From IMG/VR virus record IMGVR_UViG_2703718859_000027: DNA of 10,574 bases; one strand, given 5' to 3'. Both the position numbers and the translations under genes were made by a program. The notes beneath the pieces are model-generated. The model was not told the DNA's origin. It ran no database searches and worked only from the letters and a program-made list of their open reading frames with translations. Shown piece after piece: positions 1 through 9,468 of this stretch (its first letter is position 1; each line of letters opens with the position of its first letter). This DNA comes from a virus (Duplodnaviria > Heunggongvirae > Uroviricota > Caudoviricetes).

Positions 1-798
1 TTAATGAACATTCGTCGCCGAAAACGAGTCTGTATCATTAGTGCGATGCAGTCTCTGCAAAGGATCTTGTTGATAAAATTGGCAGAAACGTTGCCACAAT
101 GAAGGGAAACGAGGAGCAAAAAGTTCTGGGGCGCTAAAGAAATATTCAGAAAGTACGGCAAAACATTCAGCAGGATCACTGGCAGCATAAGCATCAATGC
201 TCGCCGCATTCTCGCCAACTAATTCGATTTCTTCCTGAATGTTGTTCATTGCAGCATGAAGATCGTGTTCCCAGCCAGCAACCTCACGCAACGGAATAAA
301 GGGAACTCCGCTGGCGCGATCGCCGTTACGGGTGTCCAGCTTATGAGCGACTTCATGAATAATCAGGTTAAAACCAGAAGCATCAAAAGAATCTTGTATA
401 TCCAACCAGTTCAAAACGATAGGCCCTTGCTGCCAGCTCTGACCTGACTGAACAATACGTTGGTTATGCACCAGACCGATATCGTCTTCCCATTCATCAT
501 CGACCACAAATGGCGCAGGATAAATTAAGACTTCATGAAAACCATCCAGCCATTCCAGTCCTAACTCCAGAACGGGTAGGCAAAATAGAAGTGCTATCCG
601 GCAGCTTCTTAATGAATCCAGTTCAAAGCCCTGTAAAGGAACAAGCCGCTTTTGCTGTAAAAAACGTTCGGCAAGAGTGACTAATTTGCTTTGTTCCTGT
701 TCCGTCAGACACGTTAAAAGGGGGATCGATAGTGCTTCCTGCCAGGGAAGGGCAGTTTGATGTGCTGATTCTTGTACTTTCCAGGGCCACTTAATCAT
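1..798 (-). CDS. mtfA: MtfA (Mlc titration factor A / YeeI), zinc-peptidase-like host gene flanking the prophage
   Basis: Minus-strand ORF whose translation from the ATG at 798..796 begins [23 protein letters not shown], which I recognise as E. coli MtfA (265 aa). It contains an HExxH motif ([10 protein letters not shown]). The track ORF runs to 837, but that is an in-frame upstream extension with no start codon. Stop TAA at 3..1. Confidence 0.93.
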
Positions 799-891
799 CG
801 TTTTGCTCGCAAACTCGTCACTTGAACAAAATTGCACGGACAGGGACTGTTAAAATGCCAAATTTCCTGGCATCATGGCAACCATCTGAAC

Positions 892-981
892 GGAGAGATG
901 CCGGAGCGGCTGAACGGACCGGTCTCGAAAACCGGAGTGGGGGCAACTCCACCGGGGGTTCAAATCCCCCTCTCTCCGCCA
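892..981 (+). tRNA. serU: tRNA-Ser (anticodon CGA), class II tRNA with long variable arm; prophage attachment target
   Basis: 90 nt starting GGAGAGATGCCGGAGCGGCTGAACGG and ending CTCTCTCCGCCA. Acceptor stem GGAGAGA/TCTCTCC, anticodon stem CCGGT/ACCGG with loop CTCGAAA (anticodon CGA), long variable arm, T-arm GGGGG-TTCAAAT-CCCCC, discriminator G plus encoded CCA. Matches my memory of E. coli serU, which lies next to mtfA. Confidence 0.93.
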
Positions 982-1027: not shown

Positions 1028-1059
1028 TTGGAATTACTTGGAATATTTTGTTGGAATAT
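1028..1059. repeat. Three direct copies of (C/G)TTGGAAT(A/T)T at the 3' end of int; candidate arm-type Int binding sites
   Basis: cTTGGAATta (1028-1037), cTTGGAATAT (1038-1047), gTTGGAATAT (1050-1059), about 50-80 bp from the tRNA 3' end. Function is inferred only. Confidence 0.35.
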
Positions 1060-2059
1060 TCTGGGGTAATGGTACATCCAGTGTGGGTGAGATCTTTACT
1101 TTTCTATCATAGATTAGCACCTGTCCTTCGGTCTTGTGACCAGAGAAAAGTTGCTTATCCCGGCTACTACCTTCGTAATCTGATATCCCCTTGGCTTTAA
1201 GGTCATGGAATGTAAAATCCGTCGCGATCCCTGATATTTGTCCAGCCAAATTTCTTGCCTCAACCCACATTTCATTAAATCCTTTATACATGTAACGGTT
1301 GCCGTACTGATTGCTGATTACATAGGCTGACTTGGGTAGCTGTTTAGCTTTTTCTATAACTGATTGCAGACGGGGAGTCCAGGCTTTTATCTGTTTCTTT
1401 CCTGTTTTACCTTGCTGGATAAAGATCCCGTCGTTTCCGATCTGTTCCCATTTCAGAGACAACACATCGGAAATCCTTGCTGCGCACAGGTATGCAATTT
1501 CCATTGCGATAAAAACAGGCACAGGAGCCACGCTTAATACGGCCTGGTATTCTTTGTCAGTCACATAGCGCTCTCGGTTTTTGGCCTTGAATTTACTTAC
1601 ACCGGTACAAGGATTAGCCTTTACATACCCTCGTTCATACCCCCAACTGTAAACGCGTGACATGCTGCTTTTTTCATGGTTTGCCTGCGTTTTACTCTGC
1701 TCGCCCCTTTTGTCCATGTATCGTCTGATGTGCTCTGGTTTTACAGAATCGGCCAGCACCTTACCAAATACGGCCAGCAGCTTTTTTTGATGTTGCAGAT
1801 AATCTTTTTGCGTTCTGGGACTAAGATCGCTGTAATAGGCGCTGGCGAGAAATTTTTCCCACAAACGCCCAAATGTCATTGCCCGATCGCGATGGTTAAT
1901 TGTTTCTTCGTACTTTTTCCATAATGCGGCTAAACCATCCTCGATTGCAGTTAAGGTTACAGATTCTCTGGATGTCGGTTTCCATACATAACTATATTTA
2001 TTGGGGTATACCTTTGGCGGTAATTTTTCGTGTTCGGGATTTTTCCTTCGTCTTCCCAT
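1034..2059 (-). CDS. Phage integrase, tyrosine recombinase (lambda Int family)
   Basis: 341-aa ORF; N-terminus MGRRRKNPEHEKLPPKVYPNKYSY resembles lambda Int (MGRRRSHERRDLPPNLY). C-terminal catalytic region FHDLKAKGISD ... GHKTEGQVLIYDRK contains the H-x-x-R-like and HK...Y tyrosine-recombinase signature. ATG at 2059..2057, stop at 1036..1034. Confidence 0.93.
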   Translation of the reverse strand: MGRRRKNPEHEKLPPKVYPNKYSYVWKPTSRESVTLTAIEDGLAALWKKYEETINHRDRAMTFGRLWEKFLASAYYSDLSPRTQKDYLQHQKKLLAVFGKVLADSVKPEHIRRYMDKRGEQSKTQANHEKSSMSRVYSWGYERGYVKANPCTGVSKFKAKNRERYVTDKEYQAVLSVAPVPVFIAMEIAYLCAARISDVLSLKWEQIGNDGIFIQQGKTGKKQIKAWTPRLQSVIEKAKQLPKSAYVISNQYGNRYMYKGFNEMWVEARNLAGQISGIATDFTFHDLKAKGISDYEGSSRDKQLFSGHKTEGQVLIYDRKVKISPTLDVPLPQNIPTKYSK

Positions 2060-2262
2060 TAGATCGCACCGAAATCAGGTTCAGCCTCACGTGGTGGTAA
2101 AGTGTTTCTACAGGTAAACAGTTCCCGACTGACGATCGGTTTTCCACTACGATTGGTATAGAACGGAAGCCCATTTTTTATTAACCAGTTGCGCTGGTGG
2201 CTTGCATATTTGCAGCCCGTTAATATTAGCAATTCATCTTCGGTTAAAAATAAGCTGCTCAT
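2059..2262 (-). CDS. Excisionase-like small DNA-binding protein (DUF4224-type, Xis candidate)
   Basis: 67-aa ORF directly upstream of int; its stop TAA overlaps the int ATG by 1 nt (TAATG), suggesting translational coupling. The sequence LTEDELLILTGCKYASHQRNWLIKNGLPFYTNRSGKPIVSR resembles integrase-associated DUF4224/Xis-like proteins (from memory). Confidence 0.7.
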   Translation of the reverse strand: MSSLFLTEDELLILTGCKYASHQRNWLIKNGLPFYTNRSGKPIVSRELFTCRNTLPPREAEPDFGAI

Positions 2263-2320: not shown

Positions 2321-4759
2321 TTAAAAATCAGCCTGACTCGGGAACAGTTTTTGCCAGATAGCTGAAACGTATTTTGCCTGGTAACGCGCATCGTGCAGGG
2401 CATTATGGCGTTCACCCTCAAATGTGGTGACGTTGCGGGCATCGAAATCCATCACCAACCCCAGAGCGACCATCGTTCTTACATCGCGATCATTGGTGTA
2501 ACGCCACGGGCAGGGGATCTCCTGCCGTTCATATGAACGGCGTAAAATCACGTTGTCGAAGTTGGCTCCATTTCCCCAGACCTGAACAAAAAACTCACCG
2601 GAGTTTTCGTCTATAAATTCCCGTAATTGTAAAAGCGCATCATCAAGCGGTATTCGATCAGCTAAAATGGCGGCACGGGCTTCGCCAGAGCGTTGAAGCC
2701 ACCATTCGATGGTGCTTATGTCTACAGTGCCGCCACATGTACCCATATCAATTATTTTGCTGAATTCAGGCCCCTGCTCTCCGGTTTGTGGATCGAAAAA
2801 TACAGCGCCTATTGAGGCTATTGGTGCGTCAGGATTTTTGCCCATTGTTTCAAGGTCAATCATCAGATGGTGCCACAACCTGTTGGTGGATGTGATTTCA
2901 CGATGACCGTTCACCTTAATTAAGGGATTTGCTGTCTCGCCTGTTTCATTATTGCCATTGGCATGTTGATCGCCTTCGGTGCACTCCTTGTTCGGGAGTC
3001 CGGCACTTTCCATTTCCTCCGGATCTTTTTCCCGTGCTTCATCCTGGCTTTCTTCGTTGAATGTCTCCTGGTAGGTTGCGTCACCCATCACTGCGCCACA
3101 ATCAGGGCAGTTACCACCACCAGTCTGATTGCATGCGGTACAAACTTTTTCCTCTTCCTGTTGCACTACTGGTTCAGGTTGTTTCGTTTCTGGCTCGTTT
3201 TGTAACGCATTTGGGCTGTTTTGTTCCGCTTTCTGACCGTTCTGTTCCGTTTCTTGCTGGTTCTGGTTCACAGAATCGCAGGTTTCAATCCCCTTAACCC
3301 ATTTTGGATCATTCGGGTCGCTAATCCCTTCAACAAACTCACCACGAGAAGCGGCAAGCAATTTGTCGGCATCTGGTCGACTGATGTCTGCTGCCTCCAT
3401 AATTTTATTTACTTCTTCAGCAGTAACTTTTACCTGTGACTTGTCATCCAGCGGCTGCGGGTCCTGATGATGTTCAACTGTATCCGCTGCCATTGTTTCA
3501 GCCGTTGCCTGTTCATCTGCCATTGCGCCAGATGGTTGCGGGTTTTCTTCATTATTTTTTTCTTCTTCTGTTTTGCACTCAGCAGCCAGTCCGCCGTTAA
3601 TTTCTTCCAGGATATCTTTTTCCGGTGTATGCCGGGCAGCCGTGAGAGTTTCAGTTGTGGGATTCTCGTGATCGGTCTCTGTCAGGTTGGCATTGATATA
3701 CCCCTGAAGACGTCCCGGGTAGTGATAAAACTCAGGGGGGGCGCTCCGGATAAGTGCAAAAATAGCTGCGCGGGAATAGTCCAGGATACCAGGGGTTGCG
3801 CGAAGTGCTGGGGACCATTCCCTGAACGGACTTTCTTTTTTCAGGACGATTTCTTTTGCGCGACGATAAACGCTCACGGGTATTTCATAAATATTAAAAT
3901 CCATCGGAAGTGTGGCTGCTGCAATCTCCACATCCAGAGTATCGAGGGTGTGTACTAAATCAGGATTACGATCCGTTTTATTTCCGCCACCGGCATTTGC
4001 ACCGGAAGCCGTGCGGGTGATGCGAGAAACACGATTTCCTTTCATCCACTCTTTTGTCAGCAGACCTCGATCGGTATAGTCAGCGTCCAGGTATGCTTCG
4101 AAAAAAGCAGTCATTAACCCCAGACTGGAATTAACGGGATTAGGGAAAACTTTGTCTGTGTCGCGTACCAGTTTATGAAGGTCGCGAATCTCCAGCGGGT
4201 CGAGCAGCTTTGTGTTGTGGGAAATAGCCAGGGCAGTAACAGCCGGCAGTTCTTCAGCTCGTGCGATATGTAATGCCTGAAGTTCTTCCCGTGAAACGTG
4301 CGTTACCGGTTTTTCGCTGCCATGTTGCGCAAGCCAGCGAATGGGCAGTTCCTGACCGGAAATCGGCAGGAGCATATTATCCTCAATCTCAGCCATGTTT
4401 TCGCCATTGACGTTGGTATTGTCAGTGCTGGCTGGTTTGTCCTGAACTGAGGGGGAGGGCGCTATAAATATCATTGTGATGCCATCTTCCCCGCCTTTTT
4501 CATAGCGGTTGCAGAATTCAGTATCAAACACGCCTTCCGGTGGAAGGTCATTCACAACGGGGAAATGGACGCGGACGGGTTTTTTGAAATCATCTGCGTC
4601 GTAGCCTGCCTCGTCCATTGCAACAACGCACCGTGAGATGGCAACAGATAATTTTTTTGCTGTAGTCCAGTAAAAACCTCCTTTAATCCCAAGGCGTTTT
4701 CTGACCTTGTCATTTTTTGCTTCGCAATATAGCGAAAATTCTTCTTTATCAGTGCTCAT
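2321..4759 (-). CDS. Large prophage exonuclease: unknown N-terminal domain, acidic disordered linker with CxxC...CxxC zinc-ribbon-like motif, C-terminal DnaQ-like DEDDh 3'-5' exonuclease domain
   Basis: 812-aa ORF with ATG at 4759..4757 and GAGGT Shine-Dalgarno 6 nt upstream. C-terminal motifs MIDLETMG (Exo I, DxE), [12 protein letters not shown] (Exo II) and [10 protein letters not shown] (Exo III, H-x4-D). Central low-complexity region rich in E/Q/N/T, with [16 protein letters not shown]. Occupies the exo/recE slot between xis and the kil-like genes. Confidence 0.85.
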
Positions 4760-4851
4760 GGATAAACCTCATAACTATTTTAAGGTTGTACGAACCCCTG
4801 CCATTGCTGGCATGCTTAATCAACGGGTATGGCGTTAATACGGCTGCTGGG

Positions 4852-5040
4852 TTATCCAGCCGGTGTTTCGTTATTCAGGTACAGCGATACTTTTTTTAAC
4901 GGGAGGCATTCACCAGAAATTTTTTGCTCGTCTCTTGCCTGGAGGCAGGATTCTTTACTGGCATAAATTCCGGTAATCACATTCTGTGATTCACCCGTTA
5001 TAAGAAAAACCGTCATCACCAGTGCAAATGCTGAAGTCAT
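4852..5040 (-). CDS. Small secreted/membrane protein, YdfD-like (Qin prophage lysis-protein family) candidate
   Basis: 62-aa ORF with hydrophobic N-terminus MTSAFALVMTVFLITG (signal-peptide-like). Its ATG (5040..5038) overlaps the dicB stop (ATGA), as for ydfD downstream of dicB in Qin. Family assignment is from memory of YdfD, not alignment. Confidence 0.6.
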   Translation of the reverse strand: MTSAFALVMTVFLITGESQNVITGIYASKESCLQARDEQKISGECLPLKKVSLYLNNETPAG

Positions 5041-5225
5041 TGACGTTCTCCGAAAATACCAAGTTCAAGAAGGGCAATTCTGGAGAGTATGGAATTATCA
5101 TTGAGAAGATAAGGCTCATATTTTCTCATCTTAATGGCATCTTCAGTAAACTCCCGGTTACTGAGCAGAACACCAATATCAAAACACCCTTCAGACGTAT
5201 TAACGTTTGGTAATAACGTTTCCAT
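5037..5225 (-). CDS. dicB: DicB-like cell-division inhibitor (MinC-dependent FtsZ-ring inhibitor of Qin/Kim prophage type)
   Basis: 62-aa ORF METLLPNVNTSEGCFDIGVLLSNREFTEDAIKMRK; N-terminal half closely matches E. coli K-12 DicB (MKTLLPNVNTSEGCFEIGV...FTEDAINKRK, from memory). GAGGA Shine-Dalgarno upstream. Confidence 0.85.
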   Translation of the reverse strand: METLLPNVNTSEGCFDIGVLLSNREFTEDAIKMRKYEPYLLNDNSILSRIALLELGIFGERQ

Positions 5226-5235
5226 TATCGCGTCC

Positions 5236-5793
5236 TCAACAATGAATTTTTAGTAATTGCTCCACAGTCATATTTTTAATTGCGCTCCGGTTTACAAGAG
5301 TCCAGCCTTGTTTCTCCAGATAAAACTGGAAGGTATCCAGGGTGCAGACCATTGCACCATCAGGAACGGTTTCAGTGAATTTGATATTGCCGTGTTCGTC
5401 GAGACGGATAACCAGGGTACGTCCGTCCCCGTGAATCATTTTGTCGGGAGACGGGGCGTTATTCTGGCGCAGTTCTTTCTCCATGCGATCGAACTCAGCG
5501 ATGTAGGCTTCTTTAAATGCAGCGGCTTTTTTGCCGGTGAAGCCCATCACCAGGAAAACGAAGCCGTTTTTGGTGATTTGGTACATAGGGAGTTTGCGCC
5601 CGGTTGAGTCGGTATATTCACTGGGCGAAAAATTTCGCTCAGTGAATTCTGCTGAACAGTCTAGACGTGAAATTTTTGCCAGTACATCTTTGTGTGGTTT
5701 CCGGAAATACTCGGCAACAGCTAAAGAGGATGTAACAGCACGCCCATTGGCGATAGTAATTTCAGGGTGAGAAAGGGCAGGGATAGTAGCCAT
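5236..5793 (-). CDS. Rha-family phage regulatory protein (N-terminal pRha domain plus about 85-aa C-terminal domain)
   Basis: Segment ITIANGRAVTSSLAVAEYFRKPHKDVLAKI...KLPMYQITKNGFVFLVMGFTGKKAAAFKEAYIAEFDRME matches the Rha/pRha domain (memory of PF09669). Start chosen at ATG 5793..5791 (MATIPALSHPE...) because a perfect GGAGG lies 8 nt upstream (5806..5802). The track ORF extends in frame to an ATG at 6087, so a 283-aa alternative exists. Confidence 0.8.
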   Translation of the reverse strand: MATIPALSHPEITIANGRAVTSSLAVAEYFRKPHKDVLAKISRLDCSAEFTERNFSPSEYTDSTGRKLPMYQITKNGFVFLVMGFTGKKAAAFKEAYIAEFDRMEKELRQNNAPSPDKMIHGDGRTLVIRLDEHGNIKFTETVPDGAMVCTLDTFQFYLEKQGWTLVNRSAIKNMTVEQLLKIHC

Positions 5794-5957
5794 GATGGCA
5801 GCCTCCATGATGAATTTCATTAACTCACCACCGGAGGTAGCAATCTCATGGGTGGTGAGACGCACAGGGTTGCTACAACCGGTCATCATGGAACCCGGCC
5901 AGCCTTGCGGCTGCCCTGCACGCCCCACCATAATCTGAATGTGGCTGTGCATTACGC

Positions 5958-5982
5958 ATAAAAAAACCGCCTGAGCGCGGTT
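5958..5982 (-). terminator. Candidate rho-independent terminator (minus strand)
   Basis: Minus-strand RNA reads AACCGC-GCUCAG-GCGGUU followed by UUUUUAU. It lies inside the in-frame upstream extension of the Rha ORF and downstream of dicF. Confidence 0.45.
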
Positions 5983-6202
5983 ATGCGCCATGATGAACAT
6001 CGGGGTAGCAATCCCGGCACCCGCTTTATGAGGTGCAGGTGCACTATAATTCCACCCGTTCTGGTTTTCAATAGCTACATTCAACATTTTCTCTTACCTT
6101 TCATCACCGAAGTGAACTTTGTCGATGCAGTGCCTGGTGCCTCCAGGTGACGTTAACCAGTTAACAATTAACGCCGGAATACAGAAGTATGCCCGTTACG
6201 CC

Positions 6203-6227
6203 CCGTAAAAGACCACTTTACGGTTTT
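6203..6227 (+). terminator. Terminator-like hairpin plus T-run on the plus strand
   Basis: CCGTAAA-agaccac-TTTACGG followed by TTTT on the plus strand (7-bp stem). No plus-strand gene is upstream, so its role is unclear. Confidence 0.3.
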
Positions 6228-6278
6228 AACTGTTCCGCGTGCGCTTAGCCGCATTCACCGCATCACAAAATTCACTTT

Positions 6279-6331
6279 AAAAAGGGTGGCAGAGCAGTCA
6301 CGGAGTAGAACTGATGCCACCAAAGACTACA
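6279..6331 (-). ncRNA. dicF: DicF-like sRNA (ftsZ-targeting antisense sRNA of Qin-type prophages); 5' seed differs from K-12 DicF
   Basis: Minus-strand sequence CUUUGGUGGCAUCAGUUCUACUCCGUGACUGCUCUGCCACCCUUUUU matches the 3' two-thirds of K-12 DicF (…GUUUGGCGGUAUCAGUUUUACUCCGUGACUGCUCUGCCGCCC, from memory), including the terminal hairpin GGUGGCA…UGCCACC plus U-run. Sits upstream of dicB as in Qin. The 5' boundary is approximate. Confidence 0.8.
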
Positions 6332-6799
6332 CATGGGTATTGTGGCGGGGCTGTCACTTAAGCGTATGGTCAACCTGACAACCCGGTGCATTTTCTGGAG
6401 CAATGGAGGAAACCCCAGCCATACTTACCGCCGCGCCATTTCGCGGATTGCCACAACCGGAAGCGCACGGTCGAAGAAATCTAACGACAAGCCTTCTAAG
6501 GGAAAGAGCTTCGCCGTACGCTTTCGCGTTGTGTGCCTGCTTTTAACCACGTCAGGCGAGGTGGTTTCCGTCGTTCCCCAACGACAGGAAATCTGTATAA
6601 TCTGGATATCCCCAACAACAGGAAGGTGTTTTATATGGTGGTTCAAAAGAATTGTTCAGGTACTGGTAAGCCTGCGGACAGGGCGGACATTCCGAATACC
6701 AGGAAACATATACCTGAGAAAAACATACGACCAAAACCATCTCCAGCTCCTTCAGAGGAGAGGGGGAACAGCAACAATCAAGCAAGCAGGTGATGATAT

Positions 6800-7246
6800 A
6801 TGGACCGGGATGATATTCTTGACAGGGTTTTATATGGCTATTTTCTTGAACAACTATTCTCTGTAGCGACTGGTCGTCTCGATAAACTTCTCTCAGTGGT
6901 GAGTATTATCCTCGGTTCATCTGTCATTGGTGGATTTATTCCTGAAGTTTCTGGAGTTCTCATTGTTGTGATAGCAACCGTTCAAACGATTTACGGATTC
7001 GGACAAAAGTCAGGTAACGCAATGAGAAAATCCGCAGAATATCTGCAGCTTTATGATGATGCAGAAAAATATTCCGATTCGGAATTGAAAATTCAGTTAA
7101 AGCTTCTGGAAAAAACAGATGATAATATTTGGTCGTCGCTTAAAGATATCGCAATCTTAAAAACCCGGATCAAAATAGGAATCTCCGTAGAACAACAAGA
7201 GAAACTGTCTGCAAAATCCAAATTGATGCGATTCCTTTGTGGTTAG
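6800..7246 (+). CDS. Small two-transmembrane-helix membrane protein of unknown function; candidate superinfection-exclusion / abortive-infection effector (SieB-like position, SLATT-like architecture)
   Basis: 148-aa ORF in an AT-rich segment, with AGGTGA Shine-Dalgarno 6 nt before the ATG at 6800. Two hydrophobic helices (LLSVVSIILGSSVIGGF and GVLIVVIATVQTIYGF) followed by a charged helical tail. Transcribed opposite to the surrounding early-left operon. Confidence 0.7.
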   Translation: MDRDDILDRVLYGYFLEQLFSVATGRLDKLLSVVSIILGSSVIGGFIPEVSGVLIVVIATVQTIYGFGQKSGNAMRKSAEYLQLYDDAEKYSDSELKIQLKLLEKTDDNIWSSLKDIAILKTRIKIGISVEQQEKLSAKSKLMRFLCG

Positions 7247-7344
7247 GAATACCCAGATTGTTAAAGATCATGCCGGATGCTTACCCGTGTCCGGCGAACG
7301 TATTCCACTTCGCCTGTGGAGAACTCTTTAATTACTAACCTTCA

Positions 7345-7497
7345 TCAGTCAGAGTTTCTTGCTAACCAGCGACGCGCGCCAGCTGCGGTTTTAAACGTTT
7401 TGCTTCTGGTATACGTCATCGCGGTAAACGTGCCGTCCTGGTTGGGAAACACGCCGCATACCAGAGATTCGTTGTTGCCAAGATTGAGCGTATCCAT
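7345..7497 (-). CDS. Small early-operon protein (50 aa), possibly YdfB-like (Qin prophage small protein)
   Basis: ATG at 7497..7495 with GAGG 5 nt upstream. Translation MDTLNLGNNESLVCGVFPNQDGTFTAMTYTRSKTFKTAAGARRWLARNSD, stop TGA at 7347..7345. Below the 60-aa cutoff of the supplied track. First gene downstream of the PL-like promoter; the family call is from uncertain memory. Confidence 0.5.
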   Translation of the reverse strand: MDTLNLGNNESLVCGVFPNQDGTFTAMTYTRSKTFKTAAGARRWLARNSD

Positions 7498-7675
7498 GTT
7501 GACCTCATTTACCCTTAACGCCGGGTCGCGGAACTAAAAACCTGCTGCGCTGTTATACAAAGTATTCCCGCCGTCATGTTCATACGCCTCGGGCTGGCTA
7601 CTTAACCCCTGACCACTGCCGGGTAACTCGAAGTATTGCCTGGCGTTCTGTGGGGCGGAGTGGGTTGGTGAGTGC

Positions 7676-7705
7676 AATCTACAATTAAAAACTGTTTTGT
7701 GTCAA
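7676..7705 (-). promoter_or_regulatory. Candidate sigma70 early-left (PL-like / P-dicB-like) promoter: -35 TTGACA, 18-bp spacer, -10 TAGATT
   Basis: On the minus strand TTGACA (7705..7700) and TAGATT (7681..7676); both lie within or abut the 41-bp palindromic operator, the geometry expected for repressor control. Confidence 0.5.
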
Positions 7706-7720
7706 CAGTTTTTAATTGTA
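7680..7720. promoter_or_regulatory. Perfect 41-bp palindrome (17-bp arms TACAATTAAAAACTGTT, 7-bp spacer); candidate repressor operator (OL / Ob-like)
   Basis: Arms 7680-7696 and 7704-7720 are exact reverse complements. The half-site ACAAT(T/A)AAAAACTGT recurs in the repressor/cro intergenic region (8715-8753). Confidence 0.6.
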
Positions 7721-7729
7721 CCCTTAAGC

Positions 7730-7752
7730 AAAAAAATCCCTCGAAAGAGGGA
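7730..7752 (-). terminator. Rho-independent terminator ending the repressor-antitoxin-toxin operon
   Basis: Minus-strand RNA reads UCCCUC-UUUC-GAGGGA followed by UUUUUUU, 19 nt downstream of the ParE-like stop codon. Confidence 0.6.
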
Positions 7753-7770
7753 GTATGAAAATAGTTCAGC

Positions 7771-8058
7771 TCAGATAGAGAAGGGAAATTGTCGGCGAGC
7801 ATGTGTCACGCTTACAATCTCAATGCTTGAAGCAGCTACTCTGTACAGGATTATGTAGTTAGGGTGGGTCACTATCTCTCTCAACCCAGAAACCCGTTCG
7901 CTTGGTGGATATAGGTACGGATGCTCAGATAGAGGTAATACCGATGTTTCAATACGTATTTTAAGTCTACGCGCTGCCGGTGGGTTCTCCTTGGCGATGT
8001 AAGTTATGATCTGACGCAAATCATCGCGAGCAGATGGTAGCCATAAAATGGGCAACAT
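7771..8058 (-). CDS. parE: ParE/RelE-superfamily toxin (ParE2-like) of a three-component prophage toxin-antitoxin module
   Basis: 95-aa ORF MLPILWLPSARDDLRQIITYIAKENPPAARRL...YIILYRVAASSIEIVSVTHARR with the ParE/RelE pattern. Its start overlaps the antitoxin stop (ATGA at 8058). Confidence 0.88.
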   Translation of the reverse strand: MLPILWLPSARDDLRQIITYIAKENPPAARRLKIRIETSVLPLSEHPYLYPPSERVSGLREIVTHPNYIILYRVAASSIEIVSVTHARRQFPFSI

Positions 8059-8249
8059 TACTCGCTCCTGTTAGTTACAGCAATTTGAGCAATAAGATTT
8101 TCCATTTCAGCTATTACCTCGTCATGTGGAATTGCGGGGCGAGGGTCTGCAAGGCTTGACGCTACTTTAGCGCGCAACCATTCGTTGTAACTGTTTTCTT
8201 GTTCGATAGTTTCGAATTCTGAAACTATCGGAGAAAGGGCTGTACTCAT
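8058..8249 (-). CDS. paaA2: PaaA2-like antitoxin (small, intrinsically disordered ParE antitoxin)
   Basis: 63-aa ORF MSTALSPIVSEFETIEQENSYNEWLRAKVASSLADPRPAIPHDEV..., matching my memory of E. coli O157 PaaA2. Immediately upstream of and coupled to the ParE-like gene. Confidence 0.82.
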   Translation of the reverse strand: MSTALSPIVSEFETIEQENSYNEWLRAKVASSLADPRPAIPHDEVIAEMENLIAQIAVTNRSE

Positions 8250-8276
8250 GGCATAACTCCTCTTCTTGTACTGTGG

Positions 8277-8678
8277 TCACGCCCGGCGGCTTTTTTGTGC
8301 CGCCAGCCACCGGGCAATGGTTTCTTCCATTGATTTTTTTTTGTCTTTGATTTCTTGAAGCATTTTTTCTTGGTCCTCCTCAGGGAACGCACTAAAAGCC
8401 TGGAGTAATTCGCGTTGGCGAGGACCAATTTTCATCGTGTTAGGGGTGAACATTTGCTCCCCCTCTTCAGGAGGCAATAAAAACCAATGCAACGGATGCC
8501 CTGTAACCTCAACCAGTTTATCCAAACTTGAGGCTTTAGGTGTAGCCTTACCGCTGACCCATTGTTGAACAGTTTGTTGTGTCACACCAATTCTACGGGC
8601 CAGCTCAGCCTGGCTCCATCCAGTTTCCTGAAGAAGCTTGCTGATTCTGTACATCGATACTTCTAGGGCGCTCATCAT
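8277..8678 (-). CDS. paaR2: CI-like prophage repressor, HTH XRE family (PaaR2/RacR-like), no S24 peptidase domain
   Basis: 133-aa ORF with helix-turn-helix LLQETGWSQAELARRIGVTQQTVQQWVSG. Divergent from the cro-like ydaS and heads the antitoxin-toxin operon. Start is ambiguous between the ATG at 8678 (possibly leaderless; TAAAAT lies 7-12 nt upstream) and 8654. Confidence 0.85.
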   Translation of the reverse strand: MMSALEVSMYRISKLLQETGWSQAELARRIGVTQQTVQQWVSGKATPKASSLDKLVEVTGHPLHWFLLPPEEGEQMFTPNTMKIGPRQRELLQAFSAFPEEDQEKMLQEIKDKKKSMEETIARWLAAQKSRRA

Positions 8679-9059: not shown

Positions 9060-9468
9060 ACACATCCGTATGGCGATGAATGCCTGGGCATATCCTGATG
9101 GTGAGAAAGTTCCCGCAGCTGAAATAGCCCGGACTTATTTCGAGCTGGGGATGACGTTCCCGGAACTGTACGACGACAGCCATCCGGAAGCCCTGGCTCG
9201 TAATACCCAGAAAATTTTCCGCTGGGTGGAGAAGGACACGTCTGATGCTGTTGAAAAAATTCAGGCGCTGTTACCGGCGATCGAAAAGGCGATGCCGCCT
9301 TTGCTGGTGGCCCGTATGCGCAGTCACAGTTCTGAATATTACCGGGAGATCGTCGAACGACGGGATCGGCTGGTGAAAGATGTGGATGATTTTGTCGCTG
9401 TAGCGATCGCCTGGGGCACCCTGACTAACAGTGGTGGTCAGCCTGGTAATGCTGTTGTTGTGCATTGA
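9043..9468 (+). CDS. ydaT: YdaT-family protein (CII-like regulator of Rac/CP-933P-type immunity regions)
   Basis: 141-aa ORF beginning MKIKHEHI (as Rac YdaT, from memory) and ending ...VVVH. Overlaps the ydaS 3' end by 17 nt, with GGGGGTGA Shine-Dalgarno. Confidence 0.82.
   Translation: MKIKHEHIRMAMNAWAYPDGEKVPAAEIARTYFELGMTFPELYDDSHPEALARNTQKIFRWVEKDTSDAVEKIQALLPAIEKAMPPLLVARMRSHSSEYYREIVERRDRLVKDVDDFVAVAIAWGTLTNSGGQPGNAVVVH

Follow-up and report, generated by a model that had tools for sequence, protein, structure and literature searches.

A RecE-type N-terminal region joined to a predicted DEDDh 3'-to-5' exonuclease domain in the early operon of a lambdoid prophage

Overview

The 812-residue protein encoded in the 10,574-nucleotide stretch of virus DNA analysed here (the window) is best explained as the product of a mosaic gene, in which a RecE scaffold is joined to a DEDDh nuclease head and which belongs to the early left operon of a lambdoid prophage of the Tritos/Qin type, integrated at a tRNA-Ser gene beside mtfA. 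On this explanation, to which as a whole we give a probability of about 0.6, the protein would be an induction-expressed 3'-to-5' exonuclease and not an exonuclease-annealase pair. Its architecture comprises a RecE N-terminal scaffold whose structured part (about 360 residues) forms three domains, an acidic and mostly disordered tether of about 260 residues bearing a small Cys4 knuckle, and a head of the T4 DexA/Rv2179c family (PF16473) in the position where Rac RecE has its PD-(D/E)xK nuclease. The reading frame reported in the initial annotation is intact from its ATG start through its stop codon and has a GAGG ribosome-binding sequence (Table 1).

Table 1. Positions of the exonuclease gene, its parts, and its neighbours in the window
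Feature	Position	Strand	Evidence
Whole gene: RecE-N-terminal::DEDDh exonuclease, 812 aa	2321..4759	-	ORF list; protein identical to P0001
Shine-Dalgarno GAGG, 7 nt before the ATG at 4759	4767..4770	-	Sequence read directly
Structured N-terminal region (aa 1-360), three predicted domains	3680..4759	-	Confident model
Span homologous to Rac RecE (aa 50-614)	2918..4612	-	BLASTP against K-12 RecE; identity in 40-aa blocks; NF007259
Pfam PF06630 Exonuc_VIII (aa 51-189)	4193..4609	-	hmmscan, E 2.8e-34
Acidic low-complexity tether (aa 361-624)	2888..3679	-	Composition; pLDDT
Cys4 knuckle (aa 540-554, 15 residues), candidate zinc site	3098..3142	-	Regex search
DEDDh 3'-5' exonuclease domain (aa 630-802), PF16473/T4 DexA-like	2354..2872	-	Pfam, phmmer, alignment, Foldseek
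DUF1482 (ydfD-like), upstream gene in leftward operon	4852..5040	-	Pfam PF07358; order also in O157:H7, UTI89, phages 640R1 and Tritos
dicB, cell-division inhibitor, in the exonuclease-gene operon	5037..5225	-	Pfam PF05358, E 4e-37; NCBIfam NF049927
DicF sRNA, in the exonuclease-gene operon	6284..6335	-	Rfam RF00039, 61 bits
Excisionase (DUF4224), 58 bp downstream of the exonuclease gene	2059..2262	-	Pfam PF13986; PHROG 1266
Tyrosine integrase	1034..2059	-	Pfam PF00589
tRNA-Ser, adjoining the prophage end	892-978		Rfam tRNA

The C-terminal exonuclease domain

The Pfam family PF16473 (Rv2179c-like 3'-5' exonuclease) matched residues 630-802 over the whole profile (positions 1-177 of 177) with an E-value of 1.4e-62 and a score of 211 bits (cut-off 27). 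When the domain was aligned with T4 DexA and with three phage homologues that stand alone, D635, E637, D735, H785, and D790 proved invariant, and these catalytic residues were kept even in homologues at 27% identity. The AlphaFold model of the domain had pLDDT values of approximately 84-96, and its best Foldseek match in the PDB was T4 DexA (8KEL; E = 9e-11, probability 1.00), followed in order by RNase T, DnaQ, Cap18, and the oligoribonuclease Orn. By sequence, T4 DexA was the sole PDB protein matched by phmmer, as 8KEL (E = 1.5e-5) and as the mutant 8KEN. Judged from its sequence and model, the C-terminal domain is a DnaQ-fold DEDDh exonuclease in which none of the five catalytic residues is missing, and not the PD-(D/E)xK fold of RecE or lambda Exo, a distinction that the initial annotation had drawn correctly, and the fold present predicts a polarity opposite to the 5'-to-3' direction of RecE. 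The activity is most likely that of a tethered 3'-to-5' exonuclease of DNA ends, made on prophage induction.

An internal start at Met633, which would give a stand-alone DEDDh domain, was considered and rejected, no convincing Shine-Dalgarno sequence having been found upstream of that codon. PF16473 is named after an exoribonuclease (Rv2179c), so that an RNA substrate is conceivable; our literature search found no work on Rv2179c-type proteins in prophages or on PF16473.

The RecE-type N-terminal region and the tether

The initial annotation had seen this protein as standing in place of RecE and had left its N-terminal ~380 residues unassigned, and both statements needed revision. BLASTP aligned residues 50-614 with residues 42-591 of K-12 Rac RecE at 56% identity, and because of this match we assign the N-terminus, by homology, as a RecE N-terminal region, the protein as a whole being a RecE derivative. 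Identity profiled in 40-aa blocks reached about 90% over residues 120-240, and the homology ended where the nuclease domain of RecE begins, with no BLASTP alignment past RecE residue 591. Besides the Exonuc_VIII match, the NCBIfam model NF007259 aligned to residues 1-614 through its positions 1-602 of 877, with a score of 885.6 bits, whereas the equivalog cut-off is 1269. When the protein was searched against the PDB with phmmer, the structure of the RecE nuclease (3H4R) was not matched; a family profile that includes RecE-type tails matched 3H4R solely through its tail positions.

Structure prediction of the N-terminal region gave three confident domains, the first alpha/beta (approximately residues 1-100) and the other two helical (112-250 and 257-360), for which no neighbour was found among PDB or viral structures. 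Neither a nuclease nor an annealase fold was found in this region, and the domain search likewise returned no PD-(D/E)xK and no annealase domain there, in keeping with the initial reading. The N-terminal domain of RecE boosts linear-linear recombination, and its function is unknown (PMC11611040).

The long acidic linker described initially was borne out, with D+E making up 25-28% and K+R 6-8% of segments 361-440 and 566-626. Its modelled part, residues 431-624, is predicted to be mostly disordered, with pLDDT below about 55 throughout, and pLDDT also drops to about 50-55 at residues 381-400. The zinc ribbon that had been proposed holds up as a Cys4 motif and remains a candidate as a zinc site: CxxCGxxGGGxCPDC lies within the span aligned with RecE, is present in K-12 RecE itself, and in a regex search recurred in seven of the 83 long representatives of the family, among them proteins with each of the two nuclease heads. 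Most family members are without the motif, and AlphaFold pLDDT at the knuckle was low, at ~43-55.

These 83 representatives, all of at least 450 aa and sharing the N-terminal region, comprised 21 with a RecE-type nuclease, 14 with a DEDDh head, and 48 with neither. Many of the 48 are probably truncated, and headless 'RecE-2' forms exist. A third type of nuclease head was rejected, since none was found in ten headless representatives scanned in Pfam. One of these ten bears a RecT fragment. A RecE-type relative in a Klebsiella phage has RecT directly after it, and in Salmonella phage g341c a stand-alone homologue of the DEDDh domain lies between erf/abc1-like genes and abc2.

Operon context and distribution

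The end of the prophage lies beside tRNA-Ser and mtfA, as indicated by Rfam and by the annotation of the matching E. coli locus. The gene order dicB-DUF1482-exonuclease-xis-int was the same in the window, O157:H7, UTI89, vB_EcoS-640R1, and Tritos. Intergenic gaps of 58 and 92 bp flank the exonuclease gene, and because the excisionase gene follows so closely there is no room for recT. The initial statement that no annealase lies nearby agreed with our scan, in which no Pfam or PHROG match to RecT, Red-beta, Erf, or Sak was found in any of the ORFs examined, these covering almost all coding sequence between int and the repressor; nor was an annealase found in the four related loci. A ParE/PaaA2 toxin-antitoxin module also lies near the gene in the prophage.

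A promoter of the gene's own was not indicated, with three consensus matches against a shuffled mean of 5.7, which is not above expectation, and no terminator separating the gene from dicB was found. The gene would be co-transcribed with DicF, dicB, and ydfD from a repressor-controlled leftward promoter, and because of this co-transcription the protein would be made on induction and not in the lysogen. We infer this restriction to induction from the gene order together with a weak consensus scan.

The gene is very common and already catalogued in E. coli prophages, so that the novelty implied by the initial annotation was overstated. The exact protein (P0001) occurs on 333 public contigs, labelled 'exonuclease' or '3'-5' exoribonuclease' and with both Pfam domains already precomputed; near-identical full-length clusters number more than 100; and of 5426 complete E. 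coli genomes, 3229 (60%) contain the DEDDh segment, O157:H7 and UPEC strains among them. The gene is also carried by inducible, plaque-forming phages, for example Tritos (OV696610); vB_EcoS-640R1 (ON470612) and mEp460_ev081 are further inducible carriers. The K-12 Qin gene ydfE, which we had presumed might be a truncated copy, was rejected as such because BLASTP gave no similarity (best E = 1.0). In a recent survey (PMC12315714, Genome Res 2025), the nucleases of lambdoid Rec modules fall into four types, of which the DnaQ-like 3'-to-5' enzymes form one and are also encoded near int; Tritos is given there as the prototype of a nuclease-only, Chi-rich class. The available text of the survey describes no fusion to the RecE N-terminal scaffold and assigns no role.

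Proposed activity and alternative explanations

We propose that the protein would act as a Mg2+-dependent 3'-to-5' exonuclease with DNA 3' ends as its most likely substrate, because its closest characterised relative is T4 DexA, because stand-alone homologues lie within the erf-abc recombination modules of P22-like phages, and because the domain takes the place of a dsDNA exonuclease on the RecE scaffold. By pure inference, the RecE-type N-terminal module might serve as a targeting or adaptor platform independent of nuclease polarity. The protein is not one half of a recombinase pair of exonuclease and annealase, and the phage falls into the class 'nuclease only, no annealase, no anti-RecBCD', whose members are believed to depend on Chi and the RecBCD of the host. 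A recombination role is non-obvious, because the usual effect of DnaQ-type 3'-to-5' exonucleases on homologous recombination is inhibition and not promotion (PMC12315714).

That T4 DexA is the closest solved relative also suggests an anti-phage defence of the 'HREX' type, in which the DexA-like head would selectively degrade incoming 5hmC-modified (T-even) DNA and shield the host from superinfection, much as the E. coli DexA homologue EcD is reported to break down T4 DNA and, when supplied on a plasmid, to protect cells (PMC12153337). Prophages often bear defence genes, and the ParE/PaaA2 module lies nearby here, yet we consider this explanation unlikely. The gene follows DicF and dicB in the operon, and nothing convincing as a promoter or terminator lies in between; since DicB is toxic the operon is presumably kept repressed in the lysogen, which would make the timing wrong for superinfection defence. 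The equivalent of DexA W152, reported to be required for 5hmC recognition (PMC12153337), is Thr755 in the window and O157 alleles and Tyr in the UTI89 and 640R1 alleles. D707 aligns with the DexA tetramer residue D90 by both phmmer and MAFFT, whereas EcD, a different and stand-alone protein, has Ala; the counterpart of DexA D169, in a loop region, was V769 by MAFFT and D771 by phmmer. A defence-system assignment was rejected, as PADLOC returned only a weak generic match to a Cas-associated DEDDh protein (E = 1.6e-4). Activity on RNA 3' ends like that of Rv2179c, directed at phage or host transcripts, at sRNAs including DicF, or at RNA-phage genomes as for 'TONDO', seems to us quite unlikely as well. 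Pfam does describe the PF16473 family as 3'-5' exoribonucleases, RNase T and oligoribonuclease are the next-best structural neighbours after DexA, and DEDDh exonucleases that have auxiliary domains and are encoded on prophages and plasmids block MS2 and Q-beta (2026 preprint, PMC13344964). The TONDO proteins, which are ISG20-like exonucleases with auxiliary domains, came, however, from a search with human ISG20 (cd06127) and were picked among matches shorter than 500 aa (PMC13344964), and the characterised protein closest to our domain, in both sequence and fold, is an exonuclease of DNA. The substitution for a dsDNA exonuclease on the RecE scaffold and the placing of stand-alone homologues in DNA recombination modules point in the same direction.

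Host RecBCD requires blunt or nearly blunt ends, and an enzyme that trimmed 3' tails so that RecBCD could load might thereby promote Chi-dependent recombination and concatemers in Chi-rich phages without annealase and Gam. Tritos has a homologue in matching synteny, and both Chi sites in the window (n = 2) are on the + strand; Chi sites in the correct orientation are numerous in phages of the Tritos class, which have a nuclease and neither annealase nor anti-RecBCD (PMC12315714, Table 1). This helper role is nevertheless entirely inferential and in our view improbable, as two sites in 10.5 kb are close to the E. coli average and not an enrichment, a count reached by 12 of 200 shuffles, and ExoI, ExoX, and enzymes like them are already present in the host. 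The gene might also be a decaying remnant that illegitimate recombination left behind in a defective prophage: in the closest copy from a complete genome (strain 48, 99.2% identical) a frameshift has led to annotation as two fragments, and many representatives are truncated. The intact frame in the window, the occurrence of the identical protein and of its full-length clusters in such numbers, the retention of catalytic residues down to homologues of 27% identity, and the presence of the gene in inducible, plaque-forming phages make a non-functional relic very improbable.

Significance

Genes of this kind are often annotated as 'exodeoxyribonuclease VIII', a label implying a RecE-like 5'-to-3' activity and a RecET function that, on the prediction made here, the protein cannot have. 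The value of the present analysis lies in annotation and in the framing of experiments. The RecE N-terminal region matters for linear-linear recombineering (PMC11611040), and one N-terminal scaffold occurring naturally with two heads of opposite polarity provides a clean comparative handle on it. A modest question that the protein raises is whether recombination in Chi-rich, annealase-less lambdoid phages is helped or restrained by it.

A broader reading, which we put forward as tentative and on balance doubtful, is that the RecE N-terminal region is a self-contained, polarity-agnostic adaptor made of three orphan domains and the acidic tether, on which heads are exchanged or absent, with the DEDDh version supporting RecBCD/Chi-dependent growth. 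If this were true, the function of the scaffold would be independent of RecT and of resection polarity, and its candidate docking partners would be a host DNA-end factor, such as RecBCD or SSB, and the phage replisome. The DEDDh version would be a distinct, tethered 3'-end trimmer supporting such growth in annealase-less phages, and the first ~590 residues of RecE, whose role has long lacked an explanation, would become accessible to experiment.

Comparison with known systems

The protein resembles Rac RecE in its homologous N-terminal ~600 residues, with acidic linkers and the CxxCGxxGGGxCPDC knuckle common to both, and in the position of its gene late in a leftward early operon near xis and int. 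It differs in its first ~50 residues and in having the DEDDh domain instead of the PD-(D/E)xK 5'-to-3' dsDNA exonuclease domain of RecE (residues ~600-866, 3H4R), and the recT-ralR-rcbA genes that come after recE in Rac are absent. Unlike RecET and lambda Red, the system has no adjoining gene for a single-strand annealing protein.

With T4 DexA, to which it is 27% identical, the domain shares the DEDDh fold and the five catalytic residues, but extra loops of DexA are missing and the W152 equivalent is Thr. Identity is higher, at 53-57%, to stand-alone PF16473 proteins of enterobacterial temperate phages (epsilon34/g341c gene 29, Flotzy). Stand-alone DexA/Rv2179c-like genes are found in the same genomic settings, either immediately ahead of xis-int or within erf-abc recombination modules, and their products are ~185-227 aa long, whereas here the domain forms the C-terminal head of a protein of 812 aa. 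EcD ('HREX', PMC12153337) is likewise a DexA-family DEDDh exonuclease encoded in E. coli genomes, but it is stand-alone, and its identification with the C-terminal domain of our protein was rejected because its termini (MIDTET...TIPETYD, from the cloning primers) mark it as a different homologue; the genomic setting here also points to expression on induction and not in the lysogen. A parallel in organisation is Tritos, in which the order is DicF-dicB-ydfD-exonuclease-xis-int and the 823-aa exonuclease is 60% identical to residues 270-811, with an N-terminal portion of ~270 residues that differs from that of the window allele.

A RecE scaffold with a DEDDh head

The large exonuclease ORF described in the initial annotation is real; it has 812 uninterrupted codons on the minus strand and an ATG preceded by GAGG at a spacing of 7 nt. 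A C-terminal stretch of 173 residues (aa 630-802) matched PF16473 ('Rv2179c-like 3'-5' exoribonuclease') end to end, scoring 211 bits where the gathering threshold is 27. When T4 DexA and three stand-alone homologues from phages were aligned with the protein, the Exo I/II/III residues D635, E637, D735, H785, and D790 did not vary. T4 DexA (8KEL and mutant 8KEN) was the sole PDB protein matched by sequence and also the best PDB fold match (Foldseek; E 9e-11, probability 1.00) of the DEDDh domain in an AlphaFold model of aa 431-812, where this domain had pLDDT values of ~84-96; RNase T, DnaQ, Cap18, and oligoribonuclease followed. The catalytic centre is intact, and the DnaQ-like head proposed earlier held in domain score, catalytic residues, and modelled fold.

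The first ~380 residues, previously left unassigned, proved to be RecE-related. PF06630 (Exonuc_VIII) matched aa 51-189 (E 2.8e-34), the NCBIfam RecE equivalog NF007259 covered aa 1-614 with the first 602 of its 877 model positions (886 bits, below the cut-off of 1269), and direct BLASTP of aa 50-614 against residues 42-591 of K-12 Rac RecE gave 56% identity, reaching ~90% across aa 120-240. The homology ends at ...GETANPLI (aa 614), in the linker immediately ahead of the RecE nuclease domain, which spans aa ~564/600-866 (PMC11611040); neither BLASTP against RecE nor the sequence search of the PDB aligned any of the window protein to that domain. The protein is accordingly a RecE N-terminal scaffold bearing a different nuclease head. 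The initial annotation was half right, correct on the DEDDh head and the missing annealase and mistaken in placing the protein as a replacement for RecE, of which it is a derivative. The RecE N-terminal part is dispensable for RecET recombination and boosts linear-linear recombination (PMC11611040).

The anticipated acidic disordered linker was recovered as a tether with 25-28% Asp+Glu and 6-8% Lys+Arg in aa 361-440 and 566-626, and with pLDDT below ~55 over aa 431-624 of the modelled stretch. The proposed zinc-ribbon motif corresponds to a Cys4 string at aa 540-554, a candidate zinc site; K-12 Rac RecE has the same knuckle (CNACGQTGGDNCPDC), which occurs in 7 of 83 family representatives of at least 450 aa, on either head type.

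For aa 1-400, an AlphaFold2 model from a 50-sequence alignment of family representatives gave a mean pLDDT of 88.7 and a pTM of 0.47, suggesting three confidently predicted domains (~1-100 alpha/beta, 112-250 helical, and 257-360 helical) in an uncertain mutual arrangement. Foldseek found no BFVD match for this model at E<=0.001, and the PDB matches of the family sequence profile (3H4R, E 6e-15) all fell on the RecE-nuclease tails that a subset of members carry, with nothing at its N-terminal positions. Compared with solved structures and viral models, the N-terminus would appear to hide no PD-(D/E)xK or annealase fold; the domain, profile, and fold searches found neither a PD-(D/E)xK RecE-type fold nor an N-terminal annealase domain, the two outcomes named beforehand as contrary to the initial annotation.

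Family and distribution

HMMER, run exhaustively with aa 1-565 against 1.84 billion cluster representatives, matched only 257 proteins at E<=1e-3, so the RecE-type scaffold is a small family. Nuclease heads interchange on this common scaffold, the 83 longer representatives carrying by BLAST a RecE-type tail (21), a DEDDh tail (14), or neither (48). Many of the 48 are probably truncated, and the 10 of them scanned with Pfam held no third nuclease type; nuclease-less 'RecE-2' proteins have been reported elsewhere. One 615-aa representative (P0252) joins the RecE N-terminal Exonuc_VIII region and a RecT fragment in one ORF, which may reflect fusion by deletion or frameshift, or else an error of assembly.

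The commoner 823-aa alleles share aa ~440-812 of the window protein at 60-95% identity, including the Cys4 knuckle and DEDDh head. Their N-terminal ~270 residues differ, and upstream of the shared part only aa 270-379 align (31% identity), a pattern that indicates a mosaic gene with at least three module boundaries.

The identical 812-aa protein occurs on 333 public contigs with both Pfam domains precomputed, under the names 'exonuclease', '3'-5' exoribonuclease', and 'exodeoxyribonuclease VIII'. Of 5426 complete E. coli genomes, 1221 contained at least 80% of the gene at the megablast level; the DEDDh-coding segment alone was present in 3229, with up to seven copies per genome. The closest complete-genome copy (L001 in the table) is 99.2% identical and frameshifted, and the NCBI pipeline labels its two halves 'RecE family exodeoxyribonuclease' (a partial pseudogene) and '3'-5' exoribonuclease domain-containing protein'; the Rha gene beside it is likewise frameshifted. 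In the phage collection, seven records hold most of the protein, the middle-plus-DEDDh part is carried by Tritos, HannyBb, mEp460_ev081, Evi, PPompW phages, and Stx2a-converting phages, and ~700 phages carry a stand-alone DEDDh domain.

A 2025 Genome Research paper (PMC12315714) distinguishes four types of nuclease in lambdoid Rec modules, DnaQ-like 3'-to-5' enzymes among them, places sporadic DnaQ-type genes 'very near int', and makes Tritos the prototype of a Chi-rich class with a nuclease and without annealase or anti-RecBCD; the passages covered do not describe the RecE-scaffold fusion. The gene for this predicted exonuclease is ordinary and already catalogued.

Genomic context

Features of the window and exonuclease copies at compared loci
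Feature	Locus	Position	Strand	Remarks
mtfA	window	1-837	-	prophage flank
tRNA-Ser	window	892-978	+	prophage flank
Integrase	window	1034-2059	-	
DUF4224 excisionase	window	2059-2262	-	
Exonuclease	window	2321-4759	-	812 aa
DUF1482/ydfD-like	window	4852-5040	-	
dicB	window	5037-5225	-	
Ash/Rha regulator	window	5236-6087		283-aa ORF called mechanically; overlaps C4-like and IsrK RNAs
C4 antisense RNA	window	5848-5935	-	Rfam 78 bits
IsrK RNA	window	5960-6036	-	Rfam 65 bits
DicF RNA	window	6284-6335	-	Rfam 61 bits
DUF1391	window			between DicF and ParE/PaaA2
Hydrophobic ORF	window	6800-7246	+	148 aa
ParE/PaaA2 pair	window	7771-8058, 8058-8249	-, -	
HTH (HTH_3) repressor	window	8277-8678	-	
YdaS/YdaT-like, DnaT-domain genes	window			rightward replication genes beyond repressor
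Exonuclease copy	L001 (E. coli strain 48, NZ_CP166879)	6142-8439		frameshifted
823-aa allele	L009 (O157:H7)	4109-6580		
823-aa allele	L010 (UTI89)	4108-6579		
823-aa allele	L012 (phage Tritos)	4269-6740		

The window spans one prophage end and the complete leftward early operon. As previously stated, no annealase lies nearby: the scanned window ORFs included no RecT, Red-beta, Erf, or Gam/Abc homologue, and only 58 and 92 bp separate the exonuclease from its neighbours. Between the exonuclease and dicB, the sequence showed no convincing promoter or terminator.

C4 and IsrK fall within the 5' part of the Ash/Rha ORF, and its true coding start is therefore probably further downstream; the layout is reminiscent of antirepressor switches under RNA control, as in P1/P7 and Gifsy. 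With an HTH_3 regulator, a PaaA2 antitoxin, and a ParE toxin encoded in a row, the next stretch looks like a PaaR2-PaaA2-ParE2 module of three components. This trio occupies the expected immunity-repressor position, facing a YdaS/Cro-like gene, and the HTH protein may therefore serve as both prophage repressor and toxin-antitoxin regulator. The hydrophobic ORF, opposite in strand to the early-left operon, matched PHROG 6315 only, had no Pfam match, and is placed where Rac holds sieB-type exclusion genes. In O157:H7 FRIK804, a different lambdoid prophage with an 823-aa allele occupies the same tRNA-Ser/mtfA site, which is thus reused by related phages with different exonuclease alleles.

Proposed role and alternatives

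Since its operon also holds dicB, which is toxic and needs to stay off in the lysogen, the protein would be produced at induction, once the leftward operon is derepressed. It would then work as a Mg2+-dependent 3'-to-5' exonuclease, its structured N-terminus and ~260 flexible acidic residues positioning the head on the target of the RecE N-terminus. We favour DNA 3' ends as the probable substrate (roughly 0.6), because DexA, the closest characterised protein in both sequence and fold, is a DNA exonuclease, because stand-alone homologues are encoded within DNA recombination modules, and because the DEDDh domain substitutes for a dsDNA exonuclease. Action on RNA is a less likely reading, in keeping with the exoribonuclease name of PF16473, with RNase T and Orn among the structural neighbours, and with the ISG20-like DEDDh exonucleases with auxiliary domains of the 2026 'TONDO' preprint (PMC13344964), although that group was defined on proteins shorter than 500 aa.

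On another less likely reading, by analogy with HREX, the 5hmC-recognising exonuclease defence, the head would cleave 5hmC phage DNA as the E. coli DexA homologue EcD is reported to do in guarding against T4 (NAR 2025, PMC12153337). EcD, however, is a separate protein that stands alone (the primers for it encode MIDTET...TIPETYD), DexA W152 corresponds to Thr755 here, Asp is kept at the D90 position, and PADLOC gave a weak generic match only; the alignment at D169 is ambiguous. Location in the dicB operon also speaks against expression in the lysogen. More speculatively, the exonuclease might help RecBCD by blunting ends, which fits the Tritos class and its reportedly Chi-rich members (PMC12315714), but the two Chi sites of the window (GCTGGTGG; 2193-2200 and 9303-9310, both + strand) are not significant by themselves, with 0.34 expected and two or more in 12 of 200 shuffles. 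A non-functional relic fits poorly with the conservation seen and with carriage by viable phages. A SynExo-type role, making 3' tails for an annealase, cannot apply.

Comparison with known systems

What mainly remains of interest in this predicted exonuclease is a natural head-swap on a RecE scaffold, which could help explain the RecE N-terminal region and illuminate the recombination strategy of lambdoid phages without annealase; the common 'exodeoxyribonuclease VIII' label for such genes calls for caution. The dicB-ydfD-exonuclease-xis-int order without annealase recurs at four other loci, in O157:H7 (same serU/mtfA site), UTI89 (at ompW), vB_EcoS-640R1, and Tritos. Stand-alone homologues of ~185 aa, 53-57% identical to the head, lie directly ahead of xis-int in two phages, Flotzy and the Salmonella phage 118970_sal3, and between erf/abc1-like and abc2 in the P22-like Salmonella phage g341c. 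In contrast to the window, which has no recT, Rac has the order recE-recT-ralR-rcbA-xis-int, and a RecE-type relative of 1012 aa in a Klebsiella phage has RecT immediately downstream.
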